Origin: Oscillospiraceae bacterium
GTDB lineage: Bacteria > Bacillota > Clostridia > Oscillospirales > Ruminococcaceae
Assembly: GCA_045627405.1 (NCBI GenBank)
Contig: JAZQNP010000092.1
Span: 23,591 to 87,590, forward strand
Direction: 5' to 3'
Length of the DNA: 64,000 nt
The translations under genes were made by a program, and so were the position numbers. Under the pieces are notes generated by a model, which did not search any database, was not told where the DNA came from, and was given only the letters and a program-made list of their open reading frames with translations. Below are positions 39,405 through 54,219 of the stretch, piece after piece (position 1 is the first letter of the stretch; every line of letters starts with the position of its first letter).

Positions 39405-40118
39405 TCAGGATCTGCGCTGCGGCTGCAATTCGTCACGCGTTCTGGTGATGCTGTCCTCACTGATCTTAATCAGATTCAGCAGGGAAGATGCATATTCCTC
39501 GAAGTCCTCTGAAAGCGTTGCAGTTGTGACATACAAAGTTTCAGTATCTTCGACAGCATCATTTGTGCCGAGCGCGATGCCGCTGGATGCGGCTTTGATA
39601 TTTGATTCATTGAGTGAAATGATTGCATTCGCGCTGTCGTTCGCAACAACCTTCGGCACTCGGAAGAGCTTCTGGTCGTTGTGCGGGCAGGCATTATAAA
39701 TAATGCGGAACAGCTTATAGACCGACAGCATCAGATATGAGGATACCTCTCGGATCAAAGTGACCGAATTGGCACGCTGCGAGAAAGAAAACAGCAGACT
39801 GATAGAATTGTTGATGATCTTACGGTAAAAGCGAATCGCCTCATTGGAAGGCATCTCGTTGTTTCCGTCGTCATCGGGGATTTCTTCCAGAGTCAGTGTT
39901 TTTCCGCCCGGCTCCGGTGTTCTTCCGAGCAGATAATCGCAGGATACATTATAATAGTCTGCGATGCGGACCAGAAAATCCAGTCCGCATTCCCGGATGC
40001 CTTTCTCATAGTGAGAAAGCAGTGCCTGCGAAATGCCGAGATCTTTTGCAGCCTTTTTCTGGCTGATCTTACGTTCTTTTCTTTGCAGCGCGATGATGCG
40101 CGGAAAATCGTCATTCAT
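39405..40118 (-). CDS. XRE-family HTH regulator with an uncharacterised ~170-aa C-terminal domain
   Basis: Cro/C1 HTH: RKERKISQKKAAKDLGISQALLSHYEKGIRECGLDFLVRIADYYNVSCDYLLGR. Start at the internal ATG preceded by a GGGGGAAGGAA-like RBS. Confidence 0.8.
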   Translation of the reverse strand: MNDDFPRIIALQRKERKISQKKAAKDLGISQALLSHYEKGIRECGLDFLVRIADYYNVSCDYLLGRTPEPGGKTLTLEEIPDDDGNNEMPSNEAIRFYRKIINNSISLLFSFSQRANSVTLIREVSSYLMLSVYKLFRIIYNACPHNDQKLFRVPKVVANDSANAIISLNESNIKAASSGIALGTNDAVEDTETLYVTTATLSEDFEEYASSLLNLIKISEDSITRTRDELQPQRRS

Positions 40119-40304
40119 GAGTTGAATTTCCTTCCCCCTGCGTATTCCATCAGTGTGCTGAGAAATGCACCGATGTACGATTTCATTATATAACAATCAG
40201 TATAATTTGTAAAGAGGAAAACAGAAAAAATATCCGACAAATTTTCATTCGTTTTTTTGTATATATCGTCAACGCCGTTTTCAATCGGCAGAAAGGATAC
40301 TTTT

Positions 40305-46395: not shown

Positions 46396-47658
46396 GTGCG
46401 TCCTTTGCTGCATAGACGAAAAGGAAGAAAAATCTACACTTATCGCGTAAAAAATCGCCGGGTATTCAGCAAAAATCATCCGATGCGATCTGCATTCGGG
46501 CTCATCCTGACACTTGTGCTTGCAGCATTTGCCGGTATCGTCGGATACAGCGTGATTGCACCGGTCTATGAACGGTTAACGGCTGAGGCACAATCTCCGA
46601 CAACTGTGCCGGAACCTTTTGATGCATCTGCGGTTGCAGACTCCGTATCGGGTTTGACACAGACTTCAAAGACTTCCGTTTCTGCTGAAATGACAATGCA
46701 GACAACAACCACGACAACTGCAACGCAGCTGTCATTTGATGAAGATACTATGCTCATATACTGTGTATCAGAGGATGACATGACTGATCTTTCCGCATTG
46801 GAGCAGACAGCTGTTTCCGCATCCAATCTCGGTTATACTGCGCTGGCATTCCCCTTAAAAATTGTTGGCGGCACGCTGACATACGCCTCGGCGGTTGATG
46901 CTGCAAATATATCGGGTGCGACGCAGGAGGATTATCTGACACTTGCGCAAATCACCGATCTTGCCAATGAAAACGGTTTGGAGTGTATGGCGTTTTTTGA
47001 CATGCTGAATGATCAGACATACCCTGCGGTCTATCAGGACGGTGCGTACACGATTGCCGATTCCGGTCTGCGCTGGCTGGATATGTCATTTGAAGGCGGC
47101 GGAAAACCCTGGATGTCTCCGTTTTCTCCGCAGGCGCAATCCTATCTCTTATCACTCGCCGAAGAGATCTCAAACAGCGGATTCACAAAGCTGTTCTGTA
47201 CGGATCTGATTTTTCCGAATTTTTATGATTCTGACGTGTCCTATATCGGTGACAGTGTATCCAATCCTGCGCAGCGCGCAAATGCGCTGGCATCTGTGCT
47301 GAACGGCATTGCGGAATCTGTTTCCGGAACTGTATACACTTTTGATTTTATGGAAGCTGTGAACGGTAGTGTTGAAGTGCTGGATTCCGATTCTCTCAAT
47401 GCGGATACATTCTGCGTACGTTTCGATCTGACAGCGGAAACCGATTCTTTTTCATGGAACGAAACATCATATGTTTTTACCGGAAAAACCGCATCGGAAA
47501 AATCTGCGGAGCTTTTTCAGATTGCAAAAGAAATTTCAGGCGAGCGCACACTGTATCCGTGTGTAGTGAAAAGCGGTATGACAGACGAAGAACTGTCTGC
47601 TGTATTAGAAGTGTTTTATGATGCCGGATGCAGAACAATTCTCGTATCCGTAACCTGA
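46396..47658 (+). CDS. Membrane-anchored extracytoplasmic protein with a DUF4015-like (putative glycoside-hydrolase TIM barrel) domain
   Basis: Basic N-terminus plus a TM helix (FGLILTLVLAAFAGIVGY) and a T-rich linker. The block KPWMSPFSPQAQSYLLSLAEEISNSGFTKLFCTDLIFPNF resembles the DUF4015 core as I remember it. Starts 12 nt after the RnfA-like gene. The start is uncertain (GTG 46396 or ATG 46483). Confidence 0.5.
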   Translation: MRPLLHRRKGRKIYTYRVKNRRVFSKNHPMRSAFGLILTLVLAAFAGIVGYSVIAPVYERLTAEAQSPTTVPEPFDASAVADSVSGLTQTSKTSVSAEMTMQTTTTTTATQLSFDEDTMLIYCVSEDDMTDLSALEQTAVSASNLGYTALAFPLKIVGGTLTYASAVDAANISGATQEDYLTLAQITDLANENGLECMAFFDMLNDQTYPAVYQDGAYTIADSGLRWLDMSFEGGGKPWMSPFSPQAQSYLLSLAEEISNSGFTKLFCTDLIFPNFYDSDVSYIGDSVSNPAQRANALASVLNGIAESVSGTVYTFDFMEAVNGSVEVLDSDSLNADTFCVRFDLTAETDSFSWNETSYVFTGKTASEKSAELFQIAKEISGERTLYPCVVKSGMTDEELSAVLEVFYDAGCRTILVSVT

Positions 47659-47711: not shown

Positions 47712-47809
47712 GCGCTGAAATCAATTATTTCACAGACTATTCATTCTTTTCACTGCGATTTATGCTATAATATATGTAACATTTGGTATTGACGGAGGTG
47801 CATTTCATT

Positions 47810-50800
47810 ATGAAACGAATCGTTCGGAAACATATTGCTTGTATCACAGCAGTCGCTTTGCTGGCTGTCGGCAGCACAAACACATTGCCGGTACTGTCGC
47901 CGGCGGGCAGTATGGCGGCAACGGATTCCATTCTGGACTTTGCAAATAGGCTGACAGCGCAATCTGTACAGAACCCGTCGTGCTTTGCGGCTCTTCGCTT
48001 TGCGACAGACGAACAGGTTTTTTACCGCGATGATACGGCTGTCGGAACCGAATATGATGCGTTCAGCGTGATCAACGGCAAAGTCATGGTGAAAAAAGCT
48101 GCGACATTGACATCTGCCGAACGCCAAAACGAGGGTGCTTCGGACGGATATATTCCTTTTGATGACGCTGCTGAAAAAATCGGATGTGAGATCACGGAGC
48201 AGAACGGCGATTATATTGTGGTCTCGCCGTTTCAATCTGCCGCGCTGATCGTGCGGTCTAACGGCGCAGTGCCGGCATACGGTGCTGTCAGTGAAACAGA
48301 CGGCTATCAGAATTTGCATGTGATGCAGTATAGTACTGCGGCGGATGCTTATGCTGCGTACAGGTGCTATCTGACAGATCAGACGGTTGATTATGTTGAA
48401 CCCAATCGCACGCTGTATCTTGCATCTGCGGCTGAACCGCAGTTTATCAGAGTGAATGATCGCTGGGGTCTGGATGCAATCGGCGCAGATGAATACCGCA
48501 GTTGGCTTTATTCTGTCAAAACTAATCTGCCGGAAATTGTGGTTGCTGTGATAGATACCGGTATTTATCAGGAACACAGTTGGTTTGAAAACCGCATTGC
48601 AGAGGGCGGAACCGGTTTTACATATGATGAAAAGGGGAGCTATGAGGACGGTCACGGACACGGTACACACTGTGCCGGCATCATTTGCTCTTCTACTCTG
48701 GATAATGTGAAGATTCTTCCGATCAAATGCCTGAGTGATGAAGGATACGGCTCCACCATGGAAGTATACTGTGCGATGATGTATGCGGCAGAACAGCAGC
48801 CGGATGTGATCAGCATGAGTCTTGGCGGAATCGGTATTTCTCCGCTGCTTTCAGATGCATGTGCGGTATTTGCTGAGAATGATATTCCCTGTGCAGTGGC
48901 TGCCGGAAACGAGTCAATTGATACGATGTATGCACATCCCGCGAGCGTGGATTCTGTTTTTACGGTTTCCGCAGTTGGCAATGATTCATATGACGGCTCC
49001 TCAGATTTATATGGTGAGGATGCGTATTCACTTGCTTATTTCAGCAATTTAGGCTCAAAGGTTGATTTTTGTGCGCCGGGTGTCGATATTGAAAGTGCCG
49101 GTATCGACGATCCGAACAGCACAACCTATAAGAGTGGTACGAGCATGGCAACACCTTATGTTGCCGGATGTATTGCGGATTTGCTGTCTTATGACGACAC
49201 CTTCACCTCGGATGAGATTTATCAGCTTTTGAAGCAGTTTGCATATGATCTTGGTACTGCGGGCTATGATGAATCCTATGGCTGGGGCATGGTTCGGCTT
49301 TTTGCAATGAGTGAAGACGGAAAATTCTGCGCTGCACCGACTGCCTCTCTGGTGTCCGGCTCCTATGACGGAGTACAGTCTGTGGCGCTTTCCTGTCCGA
49401 CTGAAAATGCCGACATCTATTACACGCTTGACGGCACTGTACCGACAGCGGAAAGCGGAATTCTGTATGACGGTAACTCTATCAGCATTGAAGCATCGTG
49501 TGAGCTGCGTGCAATCGCAGTGTTCGGCGGTACATCGAGTACAGTAATTTCGCGGCAATATGAGATTCTCTGTAAACCTCCGGTGATTACACCGGTCAGC
49601 GGGCAATATGAAGATTCTGTGACGGTGTCCATTTCCTGCGTCTCCAATGATGCGAAGATTTATTACACATTGGACGGTTCAACGCCGTCAGCGAAAAACG
49701 GCACGCTGTATTCCGATCCGTTTACGGTTTCAGAATCTGCTGTTCTGCGGGCTGTTGCAGTTTCCGGAAAGGCAGAAAGTGAAATCACGCGTGCTGATTA
49801 CTGCATAAACGGCGAGGAAATCTCCGATCCCTATGTCATCATAGACGGTGTGCTGGTTGCTTATAACGGCGTCGCATCCGTATTGGATCTGTCTGATTTG
49901 TACATTACCGCCGTCGGTGACAATGCATTCACCGGCAACAGACTGCTTACGAAGATCATACTCCCAGACAACGTTGCCAAACTAGGTGCAAATGCGTTTC
50001 AAGGCTGTGAAGCCTTGGAATTCGTCACAGCTGCCGGCGTCACAGAGCTTGGGACAGGTGTGTTCAGCGGTTGTACTGAACTGTACCAAATTCTGACCGG
50101 AGCTGTGCAGGAAATTCCGGATTACGCATTTTACCTTTGTGGCAATCTATCTCAAACAGAGGATTGCTTTATCCATGTGACATCCGTTGGCGACTATGCC
50201 TTCTACGAATGTGACTGGCTGGGCTCATCCGGTCTGGATTGGACACAAATTCAATCCATCGGTGACTATGCGTTCAGCTATGCATGGTTCTATGATGATG
50301 TCTCGCTCGATTCTCTGGAACATCTTGGCATACATGTGTTTGATAATGCCTACGGGTTTAGCAATATCTCACTGCCGAATTCGCTCACTGTTCTTCCGGA
50401 AGGTACATTCCGGAACTGTAATAATCTCACATCATTATCTGCACCGGGAATCATTGAGATCGGGGATTATGCAATGGCATTCAGTTCATACGAACCACTC
50501 GACACCGGCACGCTGTTTTCGCAGATTACAAAGATCGGCAGCTATGCATTTTCTGATTTTAATTTCAACGGATCGGTTGAGTTTACCAATGTCACAGACA
50601 TTGCGGAAAACGCATTTTCATATGCTGAGGCAGATTCGATGTCTTTCCCAGCGTTGCAGCATACAGGTCATAATGCATTTGCGAACGCATACTCCGATGT
50701 GTTATACTTAGAGCATATTGAGACAATCGCTGAAAACACATTTTCTTCGTATTCTCCTTATATTGTGGTAGTCGGTGACGAGCTGACTGAGATGGATGTG

Positions 50801-53800
50801 AATGCAGCATCGAACTACTGGCAGATGACACTTGCAGGACCGGCGGTTTCTCCCGCAAGGACTTTTGCAAATTCTCATTTGCTTACCTACTATGAAACAC
50901 CCGGTGTCTATCTTGACACAGAAGGTGAATCGCTGACATTGCAGCAATATGATCCGCAAACAATCGCGGCGTACCCACTCGGTTTCGGTCTGTCTCTGGA
51001 ATGGTACAGCGCAGCAGATGAGAACGGTGCAGATCCGGTCTATCTGCAATCTGCCAATGCACTGGAAATCAATGTGATGGAGAGCAGAACCTATTATTAC
51101 TATGCTGCTGTATACAAAGACGGCGCAGAAGTCGCACGGTCCAATGTGCTTCGTCTTGAAGTCATTCCGACGGAAATCATCGGTACTCTGAGTGAAAAAG
51201 ACCAGATGACGCTGATTGACTGGGATCAATATGAAAGCGGAGCGATAGCATATCAGTTTTCACCTGAGACAGCGGATTATTATTATTTCGAGGCTCACGG
51301 ATTCTCTGCGGATATTACCGTATTGGATCAGTATGGCTCTGTACAAAGGTACTACGCAACCGCTTATGTTGAACCGGGAGATGTCTATACCGTACTCATC
51401 AGAAAGTCCGGTTCAGAGCGATGGAATGCACTGTATATCTCAGATACATATATTTCCAACTATTTTGACGGTGAAATCACACTGGATGCGGATGTTTATC
51501 AGTATACAGGCAGTGCAATCGAGCCACCGGTATCTGTTATCTATAATCATGAATATTATGACAATGATACTTGGGAGTATGTCGAGGAGCAAATCACTCT
51601 GACAGAAGGCACAGATTATATTGTTCGTTATGATAATAATATTGATCCCGGAACTGCCTATGCATTTGTGTTCTGCATGGGGGATTACACATCGTTCTCA
51701 TATAGCACATTTAAGATTTATAGGCCGATTTTGGAGGATACGCCAGAATCTGTATATGATTTCACATACGGCAAAATTCCGTATTTTTGCTTTGAACCGG
51801 AGGAAACCGACGAATATCTGATCTATACCGAATATGCAGACGATCTGACAGAGCGGTTTGAAAGCGAAAGCAACTCATCCTATTATACTGATACAATCCT
51901 GACGATCTATGATTCTGATTGGAATGAAATCGGTTATAATGATGACGGCGGACAACTGCTGTTCTCTGCGATTTGGCTTGACCTCGAAGCAGGACAGAGG
52001 TATTATGTTGTACTCGACGCATGGAGCAGTTCGGAATCTGCGAGCGTATGCATTTCCAGAAAAACTCATCTCGGCATAGAGGGGTATCTGGAAGCAAGTA
52101 TATATAATTATGTTTATACCGGTGAGGCGATTGAACCGGAGTACAAATTCTATGTAGACGATGTCCTCTTAACAGAGGGAACCGATTATACAGCCCGCAT
52201 TTTTCACAATGTAAATCCCGGCTCAATGACTTTGATCGTAATTGGTCAGGGCAGCTATTGCGGCATGTACGTTTTTACAGAATTCTCCATTTCTATTGAT
52301 TTTGATGAATTGGATGACACGGTGATTGAAATTGAACCGGATGTGCCGTTTACGCTGAGCGAGCTGCGGCAGATTTATTCGCTCAATATTCCAAGCATCG
52401 GTTTGTATTGTCTGCGTCCGACCGATGCAGACGATGAAGCGGATTACTGCGGCGAGTGCTACACATACTACTATGATGGGATGTATGAAAGCTGGTACTG
52501 TACAACAAAATTCACTCCTGAGTATCCGGAATACGAATTGTACCCGGGTATGTATTATCTGATTCTCACACAAGATGCAACAGAAGAGCGCGAATTCATT
52601 CTTGAAACAGTTGAAGCATACCGGTCACTGTATTATGCAGATGTGACGGTAACAGATGCTGTTTACACCGGTGAACTGATTGTTCCGAAGGTAACCGTTA
52701 TTTACGAAGGCACTGAATTGACGGAAAATGTGGACTACATTGTGTCTTGCAATCAGCCGATGATTACATGCGGTTATTATACTCTTATCATTCAAGGAAT
52801 CGGTGAATACTACGGTAATGCTTACGCATATTTCCAAATTGTACCCGATCTTTCTGCCGAAATGCAAATACTGACGGAAGAAACAAACACTGTTACGGCA
52901 AATACAGGAGGAGAAACGGCATTTTACAGCTGGATACCGGATGAATCGCAGTATTGTCTATGGAAAGATCAACTGGAATATACAACGATTTCTGTATATG
53001 ATTCTGACATGCAGATCATCGAATACAATGATGGAATCGGTCTGATTTATACCGAAGTATATGTGGAACCGGGAAATCAATATTATATTTCAGCGGCGTT
53101 TGCCGACAGAACCATGACGGGCAGCTTTGATTTCACTCTGACTTCCGATTACGCTCTGCTGGATTATTGTGAAGTAGATACAGAGAACCTTCTGGCGTAC
53201 CAAGAAAATGCGCAGGTTCCGGATTACACAGTGAGGAACGGAGACACTGTTCTGACAGAGGGCGTCGATTATGAGGTGTTTTATCTCGGCGGAAATGATG
53301 ATTATGGCAGAGCAGAAATCTGTTTCAAAGGGAAAGGGCATTATATCGGCTATCTGGATTTCAGTTTTTACATTTATCCCGATCACTGGAACGATGTGAT
53401 TCCGGATCAGCAGATTGATTTGGCTGCGGAAGAAACCGTATTCACGGAACGCGGCTTGCCGGGAGCTGTAACGCTGTATACCTTTACAGCAGATCATGAT
53501 GCAACATATTATTTGAATCTTCCGAATACAGACAGTGCAGCAGTTACAGCATTTGTTTACGGCACAGACGGATTCATCTGCCCGCTCAGTCAGCATACAT
53601 TTGAACTGAAAGCCGGAGACACGATTCAGATTCTTTGCATGACTGACTGGCTGGAAACGAGCTATGATATTTACGACATGTACTCTGTTCAGGTAACTGA
53701 ATCCGCACCGATCGAATATTATTGGACAGAAAACGGACTCTGCTACTATCTCGAAAACGGTCTTGCGTATCTTCTCTATGTGGATGATATGATGCTTGAA

Positions 53801-54178
53801 ACCGGCTTCTATATTCCCGATGTTATTTATGATCCGGAAGGTGGAATACAGGGTACTTTTGCCGGAATCGGTGAAGAACTCTACCGGCATCTTGCATTTA
53901 CAAATACCATCTACTGCGAACAGGGCGGACTTGTTGCGGATTACTGTTCGGAAAACGGATATTGCTATGCGTTTACTGACCCGCAGACAACACTTGCCGG
54001 TGATGTCACAGGCGACGGCTTGGTCAATCAAAATGATGCATGGACGCTGCTGCGCTGGATGACTGAGGCGAGCGGCATGCAGATGACTGAACAAGGATAT
54101 GCAAACGCCGATATCAACGGCGATGGCATTGCCGACATGCTGGACGTCAATCAGATTCTCAGATACACAGCTTCATAA
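47810..54178 (+). CDS. Giant secreted subtilisin-like (S8) serine protease with Fn3-associated/CHB_HEX_C-like repeats, BspA-type leucine-rich repeats, an alternating beta-module array and a C-terminal dockerin
   Basis: Signal peptide. Catalytic triad contexts are VAVIDTGI (Asp codon 48554-48556), HGHGTHCAG (His codon 48659-48661) and SGTSMATPYVAG (Ser codon 49142-49144). Two IYYTLDG(T/S) repeats. LRR region with repeated IGDYAF/AF..C..L units. Dockerin GDVTGDGLVNQNDAWTLLRWM...ADINGDGIADMLDVNQILRY. A tgc-tataat -10 lies at 47766-47771. Confidence 0.85.
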   Translation: MKRIVRKHIACITAVALLAVGSTNTLPVLSPAGSMAATDSILDFANRLTAQSVQNPSCFAALRFATDEQVFYRDDTAVGTEYDAFSVINGKVMVKKAATLTSAERQNEGASDGYIPFDDAAEKIGCEITEQNGDYIVVSPFQSAALIVRSNGAVPAYGAVSETDGYQNLHVMQYSTAADAYAAYRCYLTDQTVDYVEPNRTLYLASAAEPQFIRVNDRWGLDAIGADEYRSWLYSVKTNLPEIVVAVIDTGIYQEHSWFENRIAEGGTGFTYDEKGSYEDGHGHGTHCAGIICSSTLDNVKILPIKCLSDEGYGSTMEVYCAMMYAAEQQPDVISMSLGGIGISPLLSDACAVFAENDIPCAVAAGNESIDTMYAHPASVDSVFTVSAVGNDSYDGSSDLYGEDAYSLAYFSNLGSKVDFCAPGVDIESAGIDDPNSTTYKSGTSMATPYVAGCIADLLSYDDTFTSDEIYQLLKQFAYDLGTAGYDESYGWGMVRLFAMSEDGKFCAAPTASLVSGSYDGVQSVALSCPTENADIYYTLDGTVPTAESGILYDGNSISIEASCELRAIAVFGGTSSTVISRQYEILCKPPVITPVSGQYEDSVTVSISCVSNDAKIYYTLDGSTPSAKNGTLYSDPFTVSESAVLRAVAVSGKAESEITRADYCINGEEISDPYVIIDGVLVAYNGVASVLDLSDLYITAVGDNAFTGNRLLTKIILPDNVAKLGANAFQGCEALEFVTAAGVTELGTGVFSGCTELYQILTGAVQEIPDYAFYLCGNLSQTEDCFIHVTSVGDYAFYECDWLGSSGLDWTQIQSIGDYAFSYAWFYDDVSLDSLEHLGIHVFDNAYGFSNISLPNSLTVLPEGTFRNCNNLTSLSAPGIIEIGDYAMAFSSYEPLDTGTLFSQITKIGSYAFSDFNFNGSVEFTNVTDIAENAFSYAEADSMSFPALQHTGHNAFANAYSDVLYLEHIETIAENTFSSYSPYIVVVGDELTEMDVNAASNYWQMTLAGPAVSPARTFANSHLLTYYETPGVYLDTEGESLTLQQYDPQTIAAYPLGFGLSLEWYSAADENGADPVYLQSANALEINVMESRTYYYYAAVYKDGAEVARSNVLRLEVIPTEIIGTLSEKDQMTLIDWDQYESGAIAYQFSPETADYYYFEAHGFSADITVLDQYGSVQRYYATAYVEPGDVYTVLIRKSGSERWNALYISDTYISNYFDGEITLDADVYQYTGSAIEPPVSVIYNHEYYDNDTWEYVEEQITLTEGTDYIVRYDNNIDPGTAYAFVFCMGDYTSFSYSTFKIYRPILEDTPESVYDFTYGKIPYFCFEPEETDEYLIYTEYADDLTERFESESNSSYYTDTILTIYDSDWNEIGYNDDGGQLLFSAIWLDLEAGQRYYVVLDAWSSSESASVCISRKTHLGIEGYLEASIYNYVYTGEAIEPEYKFYVDDVLLTEGTDYTARIFHNVNPGSMTLIVIGQGSYCGMYVFTEFSISIDFDELDDTVIEIEPDVPFTLSELRQIYSLNIPSIGLYCLRPTDADDEADYCGECYTYYYDGMYESWYCTTKFTPEYPEYELYPGMYYLILTQDATEEREFILETVEAYRSLYYADVTVTDAVYTGELIVPKVTVIYEGTELTENVDYIVSCNQPMITCGYYTLIIQGIGEYYGNAYAYFQIVPDLSAEMQILTEETNTVTANTGGETAFYSWIPDESQYCLWKDQLEYTTISVYDSDMQIIEYNDGIGLIYTEVYVEPGNQYYISAAFADRTMTGSFDFTLTSDYALLDYCEVDTENLLAYQENAQVPDYTVRNGDTVLTEGVDYEVFYLGGNDDYGRAEICFKGKGHYIGYLDFSFYIYPDHWNDVIPDQQIDLAAEETVFTERGLPGAVTLYTFTADHDATYYLNLPNTDSAAVTAFVYGTDGFICPLSQHTFELKAGDTIQILCMTDWLETSYDIYDMYSVQVTESAPIEYYWTENGLCYYLENGLAYLLYVDDMMLETGFYIPDVIYDPEGGIQGTFAGIGEELYRHLAFTNTIYCEQGGLVADYCSENGYCYAFTDPQTTLAGDVTGDGLVNQNDAWTLLRWMTEASGMQMTEQGYANADINGDGIADMLDVNQILRYTAS

Positions 54179-54181
54179 TAC

Positions 54182-54219
54182 ATAAGCCGCTGATGCAAGA
54201 GTCAGCGGCTTATATTTTG
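54182..54219 (+). terminator. Rho-independent terminator after the protease gene
   Basis: Stem ataagccgctga / tcagcggcttat followed by attttgc. Confidence 0.8.

Follow-up and report, generated by a model that had tools for sequence, protein, structure and literature searches.

A 2122-residue dockerin-bearing subtilisin with leucine-rich repeats: a candidate cellulosome-tethered protease of an uncultured rumen and gut genus

The gene and its modules

The DNA analyzed here, a stretch of 64,000 nucleotides (nt) referred to as the window, belongs to the cellulosome-type metagenome-assembled genome of an Oscillospiraceae bacterium (2.25 Mb, 114 contigs, 98.7% complete). At positions 47810–54178 of the forward strand it contains a single stop-free frame of 2122 codons, the longest of the 1344 long open reading frames (ORFs) of this genome, whose translation combines a subtilisin-family (S8) peptidase domain, leucine-rich repeats (LRR), a long array of beta-sandwich modules and a C-terminal dockerin (Table 1). 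The start codon ATG is located 11 nt 3' of the GGAGG sequence, and the stop codon lies 3 nt upstream of the terminator stem. An earlier note on this DNA, made from the sequence alone, had seen the gene as flanked by its own promoter and terminator; the terminator was recovered by the scan, while the promoter is no more than a plausible candidate: the TGCTATAAT element is not listed in the promoter consensus scan, as it lacks a matching -35 hexamer. The protein is strongly acidic (320 Asp and Glu residues vs. 78 Lys and Arg residues), and neither a lipobox nor an LPXTG motif was found in it by the motif search.

The Pfam model of the S8 catalytic domain scores 129.9 bits against a cut-off of 21.8, and the active-site residues are all in frame, namely, D249 (nt 48554, in VIDTG), H284 (nt 48659, in HGTHCAG), and S445 (nt 49142, in GTSMATP), with N367 as the oxyanion-hole Asn. 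These four residues are invariant in 15 full-length homologs, as well as in 12 orthologs and paralogs, and are aligned in the hidden Markov model alignment to PDB:2b6n; the family profile compared with all PDB sequences matches proteinase K and subtilisin BPN' with E-values of about 1e-50. According to these alignments, the protein belongs to peptidase family S8, with an S8A-like subfamily assignment. The intact triad had been reported in the earlier note at the same positions, together with the concern that its residues might not align in a proper S8 profile; this concern is removed, since the triad aligns in both the Pfam and the PDB profile comparisons and is invariant. Pfam yields no hit in the protein to a PA-domain insert or an fn3 A-domain, and the NCBIfam matches to named S8 equivalogs are all far under their cut-offs.

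The region upstream of the catalytic domain was modeled with AlphaFold as a part of aa 1–520, using ten orthologs (predicted local distance difference test, pLDDT, 75; predicted template modeling score, pTM, 0.81). In the model, the hydrophobic helix of the signal peptide is followed by a disordered segment, aa 23–37, and the sequence suggests that cleavage likely occurs near SMA/A. The next domain, aa 38–142, is modeled with pLDDT of 80–90; PDB profile and Pfam searches produced no significant match for it, one out of ten family members matching Cu_amine_oxidN1 weakly (E 0.017). It is followed by a beta-alpha-beta unit packed onto the catalytic domain. No Pfam family, including the I9 model, matches aa 1–240 even at E ≤ 5. 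The top Foldseek matches of the model are unprocessed pro-subtilisin E (3whi, E 1.6e-20, 381 columns), pro-Tk-subtilisin, and fervidolysin; the structural alignments to pro-subtilisins span 381–423 columns, compared with about 275 residues in mature subtilisin, and the family profile is aligned to 3whi starting at profile position 170. As the best matches of the model are pro-subtilisins and the profile aligns to 3whi, the I9-like propeptide suggested previously is supported at the level of the predicted fold, not by the Pfam model.

The two IYYTLDG-type repeats noticed earlier downstream of the protease domain are located at aa 536 and aa 617, one in each CHB_HEX_C module. The BspA-type LRR region is likewise confirmed, with LRR_5 scoring 137.3 bits against a cut-off of 27.7 and the span amounting to approximately 350 aa; twelve "..IG..AF" units are recognizable at aa 699–978, spaced by 22–25 aa with one gap of 42 aa.

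The remaining part, described in the earlier note as a long module array, was resolved by motifs and by an AlphaFold model of aa 1040–2122 (mean pLDDT 80.6, pTM 0.44) into the Ig-like module D0, five modules A1–A5 of ~100 aa each, similar to PPC domains and collagen-binding domains (CBD), and four Ig-like modules B1–B4 of ~75 aa each, with the motif YTG..P...LTEGxDY...G.G.Y.G. In the model, all-beta beads are strung one after another, and the chain ends with a small alpha/beta module and a three-helix dockerin. For aa 1040–2060, no Pfam model reaches significance, when searched module by module at E up to 5.

When the profile of 49 A modules was compared with PDB, the best match was a metalloprotease PPC domain (2luw, E 1.4e-3), ahead of the tandem CBDs of ColG (5iku, E 1.8e-3), further CBDs of collagenases, and the C-terminal domain of the Clostridium perfringens enterotoxin (cCPE), all of these sharing one fold; in the Foldseek search with the whole tail, 5iku was retrieved with probability 1.0 and TMt of 0.29. 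The window protein's own A modules have no Pfam PPC match. A modules occupying the same position in orthologs are 24% identical, compared with 14% between positions, and since the former value exceeds the latter, the array appears to be old and position-specific, and not a recently expanding repeat. The same A-module profile matches residues 623–718 (E 7e-3) of the solved glycosidase AaBgIC (PDB:8zvk_A, 785 aa), where residues 715–777 are matched by the dockerin (E 8e-7); therefore, a PPC-like module is situated right before a dockerin in this protein as well. In our protein, this place is occupied by the small alpha/beta module, for which the PDB profile search gave no significant match.

The B modules have no significant PDB profile or Pfam relative. 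When 1.84 billion representative proteins were searched with the tail profile, 12,346 of them matched at E ≤ 1e-10, and the stretch corresponding to the B module (tail-profile positions ~557–633) was repeated 10–68 times in thousands of giant proteins. Given this recurrence, the B module is a widespread building block, matched by no Pfam model. In three library proteins of 5737–7213 aa (P0140, P0141, P0145), the "YTG...LTEGxDY" module occurs 57–68 times each.

The tail could be regarded not as a stalk but as an alpha-2-macroglobulin-like protease trap, as Foldseek ranks bacterial alpha-2-macroglobulins and complement proteins high (E-values from 1e-11 to 1e-8). These matches, however, have TM-scores of 0.06–0.12 and root-mean-square deviations of 24–40 Å, demonstrating generic likeness among strings of beta-sandwiches; besides, there is no CxEQ thioester motif, and the all-beta tail model lacks a helical thioester domain. 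The trap is effectively refuted by these observations, and its probability is negligible.

The two-segment dockerin at the C-terminus, also present in the earlier description, scores above the Pfam cut-off of 22.9 bits both within the whole protein (28.9 bits) and alone (36.1 bits), its two 12-residue Ca-binding loops are intact, and three helices are seen in the model. Among solved dockerins, the best match is the group I dockerin of Ruminococcus flavefaciens (5m2o_B, E 1.2e-5), with dockerins of Clostridium (Acetivibrio) thermocellum matched as well. These data support a genuine type I dockerin, whose binding to a cohesin may be predicted.

Table 1. Features of the protease gene and its product. 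Positions are those of the window; aa, amino acid residues of the protein.
Feature	Protein, aa	Window, nt	Strand	Basis and details
Extended -10-like element TGCTATAAT, putative promoter		47763..47771	+	Read in the sequence
Ribosome-binding site GGAGG		47794..47798	+	Sequence
Sec-type signal peptide	1–37	47810..47920	+	Basic n-region, hydrophobic helix aa 4–22 (also in the AlphaFold model)
Conserved alpha/beta N-domain, unassigned	38–142	47921..48235	+	10 orthologs, mean column identity 49%
Subtilisin-type (I9-like) propeptide fold	~143–206	48236..48427	+	Family profile, Foldseek
Peptidase S8 catalytic domain	242–493	48533..49288	+	Pfam PF00082, E 1.5e-37
Two CHB_HEX_C_1/Fn3_assoc beta-sandwich modules	~512–590, 595–664	49343..49801	+	Pfam, E 9.5e-34, two stretches
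BspA-type LRR region, ~12–14 units	~680–1035	49847..50914	+	LRR_5, E 3.5e-40, three stretches
Ig-like beta-sandwich D0	1040–1121	50927..51172	+	All-beta in the model; weak Ig_7 match, E 0.016
Alternating A1–A5/B1–B4 array	1122–1965	51173..53704	+	Motif positions, AlphaFold model
Small alpha/beta pre-dockerin module, unassigned	1967–2059	53708..53986	+	10 orthologs; strands and two helices in the model
Dockerin_1 (PF00404)	2063–2119	53996..54166	+	Pfam; two Ca loops, DVTGDGLVNQND and DINGDGIADMLD
Intrinsic terminator		54182..54213	+	Terminator scan; 13-bp stem, then T-run

Distribution, composition and locus

Two paralogs of the gene are found in the same genome, on contigs C86 (2072 aa) and C70 (2066 aa). 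Both repeat the domain order of the window protein, but with one CHB_HEX_C module, and are ~40% identical to it in the S8 domain and ~25% in the tail. These three giant proteins are the only S8 peptidases of the genome. Furthermore, the tail array was observed in 43 of the remaining 44 species of the GTDB genus, and in all 22 high-quality genomes, with one to five copies in each, mostly in frames of 2040–2150 aa, compared with two out of 200 sampled genomes of the family (166 genera). When the best 150 library matches are considered, the array is covered in full, by one to three stretches, in no fewer than 42 clusters at 50% identity. The length of the tail is 1073–1115 aa in 11 out of 12 homologs despite identity of 22–33%. 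The retention of the tail length and of the modules by position argues for a fixed and functional architecture.

Across the family, the S8 domain is the most conserved part (47–62% identity vs. 24–32% for the tail). Short members of ~1130–1170 aa comprise the S8 domain, the second half of the tail and the dockerin, without CHB_HEX_C or LRR, and the dockerin is kept at the C-terminus in nearly all members, including both paralogs and the short forms. Loci of the short forms are, for example, L010:1216–4584 and L011:7860–11348, and matches in the genus occur in frames of 1093–1200 aa. Named members are proteins from metagenome-assembled genomes (MAGs) labelled "leucine-rich repeat protein" or "S8 family serine peptidase," and the related contigs come from MAGs of ruminant, horse and similar guts.

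The earlier note had also remarked, by eye, that the gene looks richer in AT and in Tyr codons than its neighbours. The computed values agree: the G+C content (GC) is 0.461 and that of third codon positions (GC3) is 0.456, and among the 1344 long ORFs the gene is at percentile 0.7 by GC, 0.9 by GC3, and 99.7 by Tyr. For comparison, GC is 0.493 in the window, 0.495 in the contig, and 0.534 in the genome, the ORF means being 0.548 for GC and 0.623 for GC3. Values under the first percentile, combined with ordinary GC of both paralogs, might indicate a recently acquired foreign gene. However, the AT shift is concentrated in the Tyr/Asp/Glu/Thr-rich tail (Tyr 12%, GC 0.43–0.44), and the second half of the gene is 1–4 GC points under the first half in most orthologs; moreover, the entire contig is AT-shifted. 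Orthologs with identity of 30–40% hold the same slot, in the order MecA–(Rnf-like)–DUF4015–protease–Amidase_3–FkbH, with the identities of neighbours being 33–54% for MecA, 37–45% for DUF4015, 60–64% for Amidase_3, and 79–80% for FkbH. Since the orthologs share the syntenic slot and the neighbours are similarly diverged, AT-richness is not a mark of recent transfer; in addition, the sole near-identical sequences represent the same gene in the same context. Hence, we regard recent foreign origin of the gene as highly improbable.

The contig itself (C92, 88.7 kb, the window being C92:23591–87590) has the lowest GC among the large contigs, with C28 and C63 having GC near 0.50. Mis-binning of this contig is unlikely because none of its core genes is closely duplicated elsewhere in the bin.

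The DUF4015 gene (window positions 46396–47658) directly precedes the protease gene in six out of nine ortholog loci (the window, L090, L092, L093, L095, and L096), with or without the Rnf-like triad, an arrangement that may be no more than conserved synteny; in the window, a terminator-like hairpin separates the two genes. In a contig of the Joint Genome Institute (JGI) metagenome 3300011006 (L097:6233–7463), which carries the identical protease, the DUF4015 ortholog is split into three ORFs of 61, 184, and 140 aa, compared with 420 aa, and possibly is broken in that strain or reflects an assembly error.

Two contigs from JGI metagenomes (3300011008 and 3300011006) contain a 98%-identical copy of the protease gene and run collinear with the window for ~23 kb. 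In the comparison with a 98–99% identical strain, a divergence hot spot was noticed at the gene of an HTH_3-type regulator (window positions 39405–40187, corresponding to L096:1596–2378, minus strand), where 1 kb contains about 75 mismatches (27.7 non-synonymous and 7.3 synonymous), compared with 0–10 differing sites per kb in the neighbouring genes.

Predicted tethering and possible roles

The order of the modules suggests how the protein could operate. The Sec signal peptide would direct its export; the propeptide and the extra N-domain would fold and transiently inhibit the S8 domain; the propeptide would then be cut off autocatalytically, as the pro-subtilisin fold suggests. Because the catalytic domain is N-terminal to all other modules, the protease is expected to stay on the stalk, being joined to ~1600 residues of non-catalytic modules after processing. 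The dockerin would attach to one of the cohesins in the scaffoldin system of the organism itself, and the active protease would be held tens of nanometres from the anchor, on the cellulosome or on the cell surface. Thus, the protein is probably a secreted subtilisin zymogen, predicted to be tethered by its C-terminus, on a stalk, at a cohesin. Binding of the target, or of an insoluble substrate, is most likely the task of the LRR arm and the PPC-like modules.

The genome contains the machinery for such tethering: 88 dockerin and seven cohesin matches were identified, the cohesins being located on contigs C18, C112, C93 (two matches), C53, C13, and C105, cohesin–dockerin (Coh-Doc) adaptors are present, and one Coh-Doc gene is located directly upstream of a large scaffoldin with Thr linkers at the end of contig C93, a layout resembling that of the R. 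flavefaciens type.

Several observations weigh against this reading. The dockerin shares no more than 42% identity with any of the ~95 other dockerins of the genome, and, of the dockerins of LRR proteins from R. flavefaciens FD-1, most failed to bind any of the cohesins tested (PMC5301203). The pTM of 0.44 for the tail model makes the inter-domain geometry unreliable, and the length of the stalk is an estimate for that reason. The PPC-like assignment relies on marginal E-values of about 1e-3, and Pfam PPC (PF04151) is matched by two out of 49 A modules at E < 1, with the best E of 0.073; consequently, the A modules are termed PPC-like only, a marginal assignment of fold and not membership in PF04151. 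Finally, 38.5 non-synonymous vs. 13.5 synonymous differences were counted in the gene between two near-identical strains, with the ratio of non-synonymous to synonymous rates (pN/pS) of 0.83; by domain, pN/pS is 0.42 for S8, 1.9 for the CHB modules, and 1.2 for the tail, while 19 flanking genes pooled yield 0.39, all of this based on small counts and on ratios that are inflated between close strains. This suggests that the non-catalytic surface parts change faster, in keeping with a rapidly evolving surface protein; relaxed constraint outside the S8 domain would equally yield high pN/pS.

The divergence of the dockerin raises the possibility that it does not join the organism's own scaffoldins, the protein being free or binding a non-cohesin or foreign partner. 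In line with this, no cohesin gene is adjacent to the protease gene, the FD-1 precedent is the one cited above, and the S8 double dockerin of C. thermocellum binds scaffoldins of several species, according to a review (PMC12484212). On the other hand, the C-terminal dockerin is retained in nearly all family members, both Ca loops are intact, and several cohesins are encoded in the genome, making the free or foreign-bound state quite unlikely. Comparison with the nearest dockerins of the genome did not place it in a group, as it is an outlier.

The faster change of the non-catalytic parts is also relevant to another explanation, that the protein is mainly an adhesin or a structural stalk, with the LRR and the beads binding fibre, host glycoproteins or microbes, and the S8 domain acting in self-processing or shedding only. 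Indeed, three quarters of the protein consist of non-catalytic modules of the binding type, LRRs of the BspA type are typically found in adhesins, with a weak NCBIfam match to the LRR adhesin HupY/LrrG, and the tail is very rich in Tyr (12%), a frequent trait of binding surfaces. Nevertheless, the catalytic residues are invariant family-wide, with the conservation gap between the S8 domain and the tail given above, and since the short members drop LRR and CHB but keep S8, the protease, not the LRR, is the constant element. This explanation therefore seems rather unlikely to us.

If the protein indeed acts as a tethered protease, its role may be sought among the three proposed for cellulosomal peptidases, which may process or turn over components, recycle nitrogen, or clear biomass of protein barriers (PMC12484212, PMC6780208). 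We tentatively favour the cutting of plant cell-wall or feed proteins at the fibre surface, which could provide access and nitrogen, though the odds for this role fall somewhat short of even; processing or turnover of cellulosome components is a less probable role, and an attack on surface proteins of competitors is improbable.

Competition could also involve serpins, and a protective function against subtilisins has been suggested for the serpins of cellulosomes (PMC12484212, PMC5301203). Three serpin matches are found in the genome (C71:294–2032, minus strand, and C81:75369–76421, plus strand); the two matches on the 2-kb contig C71 are adjacent to each other and next to a dockerin fragment. 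Serpins are present in 38 out of 44 species of the genus, often in tandem arrays with up to ten copies; in the family, 46 out of the 200 genomes sampled have serpins, usually one copy each. Strict co-occurrence of serpins and proteases was not found, as six protease-bearing members of the genus have no serpins and many genera have serpins only. One could speculate that the three stalked S8 proteases and the large serpin set form one offensive and defensive system on plant fibre, where the proteases, extending outwards from the scaffoldin, would cleave the linkers, adhesins or cellulosomes that rival fibre degraders expose, the LRR and PPC-like modules would select the target, and the organism's own serpins would shield its own complexes; we consider such a system a long shot.

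"Peptidases" and "LRR proteins" have long been listed among dockerin-bearing components of cellulosomes, with obscure roles, and here the two are fused in a fixed protein of ~2100 residues, with several ancient paralogs that supply all S8 peptidases of the genome. Its conservation points to an important job at the interface between fibre and cell and makes it a well-defined candidate for experiments. Besides, two module families outside Pfam have been defined, the divergent PPC-like module and the Ig-like "YTG...LTEGxDY" module. Should the protein be only what it appears to be, the result is a useful annotation and not a surprise.

Comparison with known systems

Neither S8 proteases nor LRR proteins with a dockerin are a novelty, and nor is the mechanism. 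The literature documents peptidases of the S8 and cysteine types in cellulosomes, as well as dockerin-LRR proteins (PMC2930009, PMC5301203, PMC12484212). However, the literature searched contains no description of the architecture combining S8, CHB_HEX_C, LRR, a PPC-like/Ig-like array and a dockerin. Nearly universal and multi-copy in one uncultured genus from the rumen and gut, it is a hallmark of that genus that has not been described so far.

In R. flavefaciens FD-1, dockerin-borne peptidases and LRR proteins have been catalogued as separate classes (PMC2930009, PMC5301203, PMC4081043), the peptidases being of the transglutaminase-like/cysteine, metallo-, carboxy-, and VanY types (PMC2930009). 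The window protein shares with the FD-1 proteins the Ruminococcus-type cellulosome and the general plan of a signal peptide, LRR and/or peptidase, and a C-terminal dockerin, but fuses S8 and LRR, which are separate in FD-1.

The structure of a cellulosomal S8 protease from C. thermocellum with a tandem double dockerin has been solved (PDB:8x39, 8x3a; Chen et al. 2024, cited in PMC12484212), and its double dockerin binds scaffoldins, as stated in that review (PMC12484212). This protease, too, is a secreted subtilisin-family enzyme fused to dockerin modules, and it has been proposed to be located on scaffoldins and to function in processing or nitrogen recycling, not in polysaccharide breakdown. 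The dockerin of the window protein matches the solved double-dockerin chain weakly (E 3.6e-3). In contrast to the C. thermocellum enzyme, the window protein has one dockerin and not two, adds ~1600 residues of CHB_HEX_C, LRR, Ig-like, and PPC-like modules before it, and carries an extra N-domain ahead of the propeptide.

An S8-peptidase-like domain has also been described in scaffoldins of the ScaO type from A. cellulolyticus, C. alkalicellulosi, and A. mesophilus (PMC11557425, PMC6780208). There, too, the S8 domain is a part of a protein of the cohesin–dockerin system, but ScaO carries cohesins and FN3 repeats and is a scaffoldin, whereas Pfam detects no cohesin domain in the 2122-aa protein.

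The clostridial collagenases ColG and ColH (family M9, with PKD and collagen-binding domains) similarly consist of a protease followed by substrate-binding beta-sandwich modules of the PPC/CBD fold. They are metallopeptidases of family M9, whereas our protein is a serine peptidase of family S8, and the likeness of the A modules to 5iku is marginal, with E of about 1e-3.

Cell-envelope proteinases, such as lactococcal PrtP (lactocepin) and the streptococcal C5a peptidase ScpA, are pre-pro-S8 enzymes of ~1100–2000 residues, with an N-terminal catalytic domain, a long beta-sandwich spacer and a C-terminal anchor holding the enzyme off the cell. The window protein has no PA insert, Fn3 A-domain or LPXTG and is not a member of this group, but it follows the same logic. 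In its design, it can be seen as the cohesin–dockerin counterpart of these proteinases, with a dockerin in place of LPXTG.

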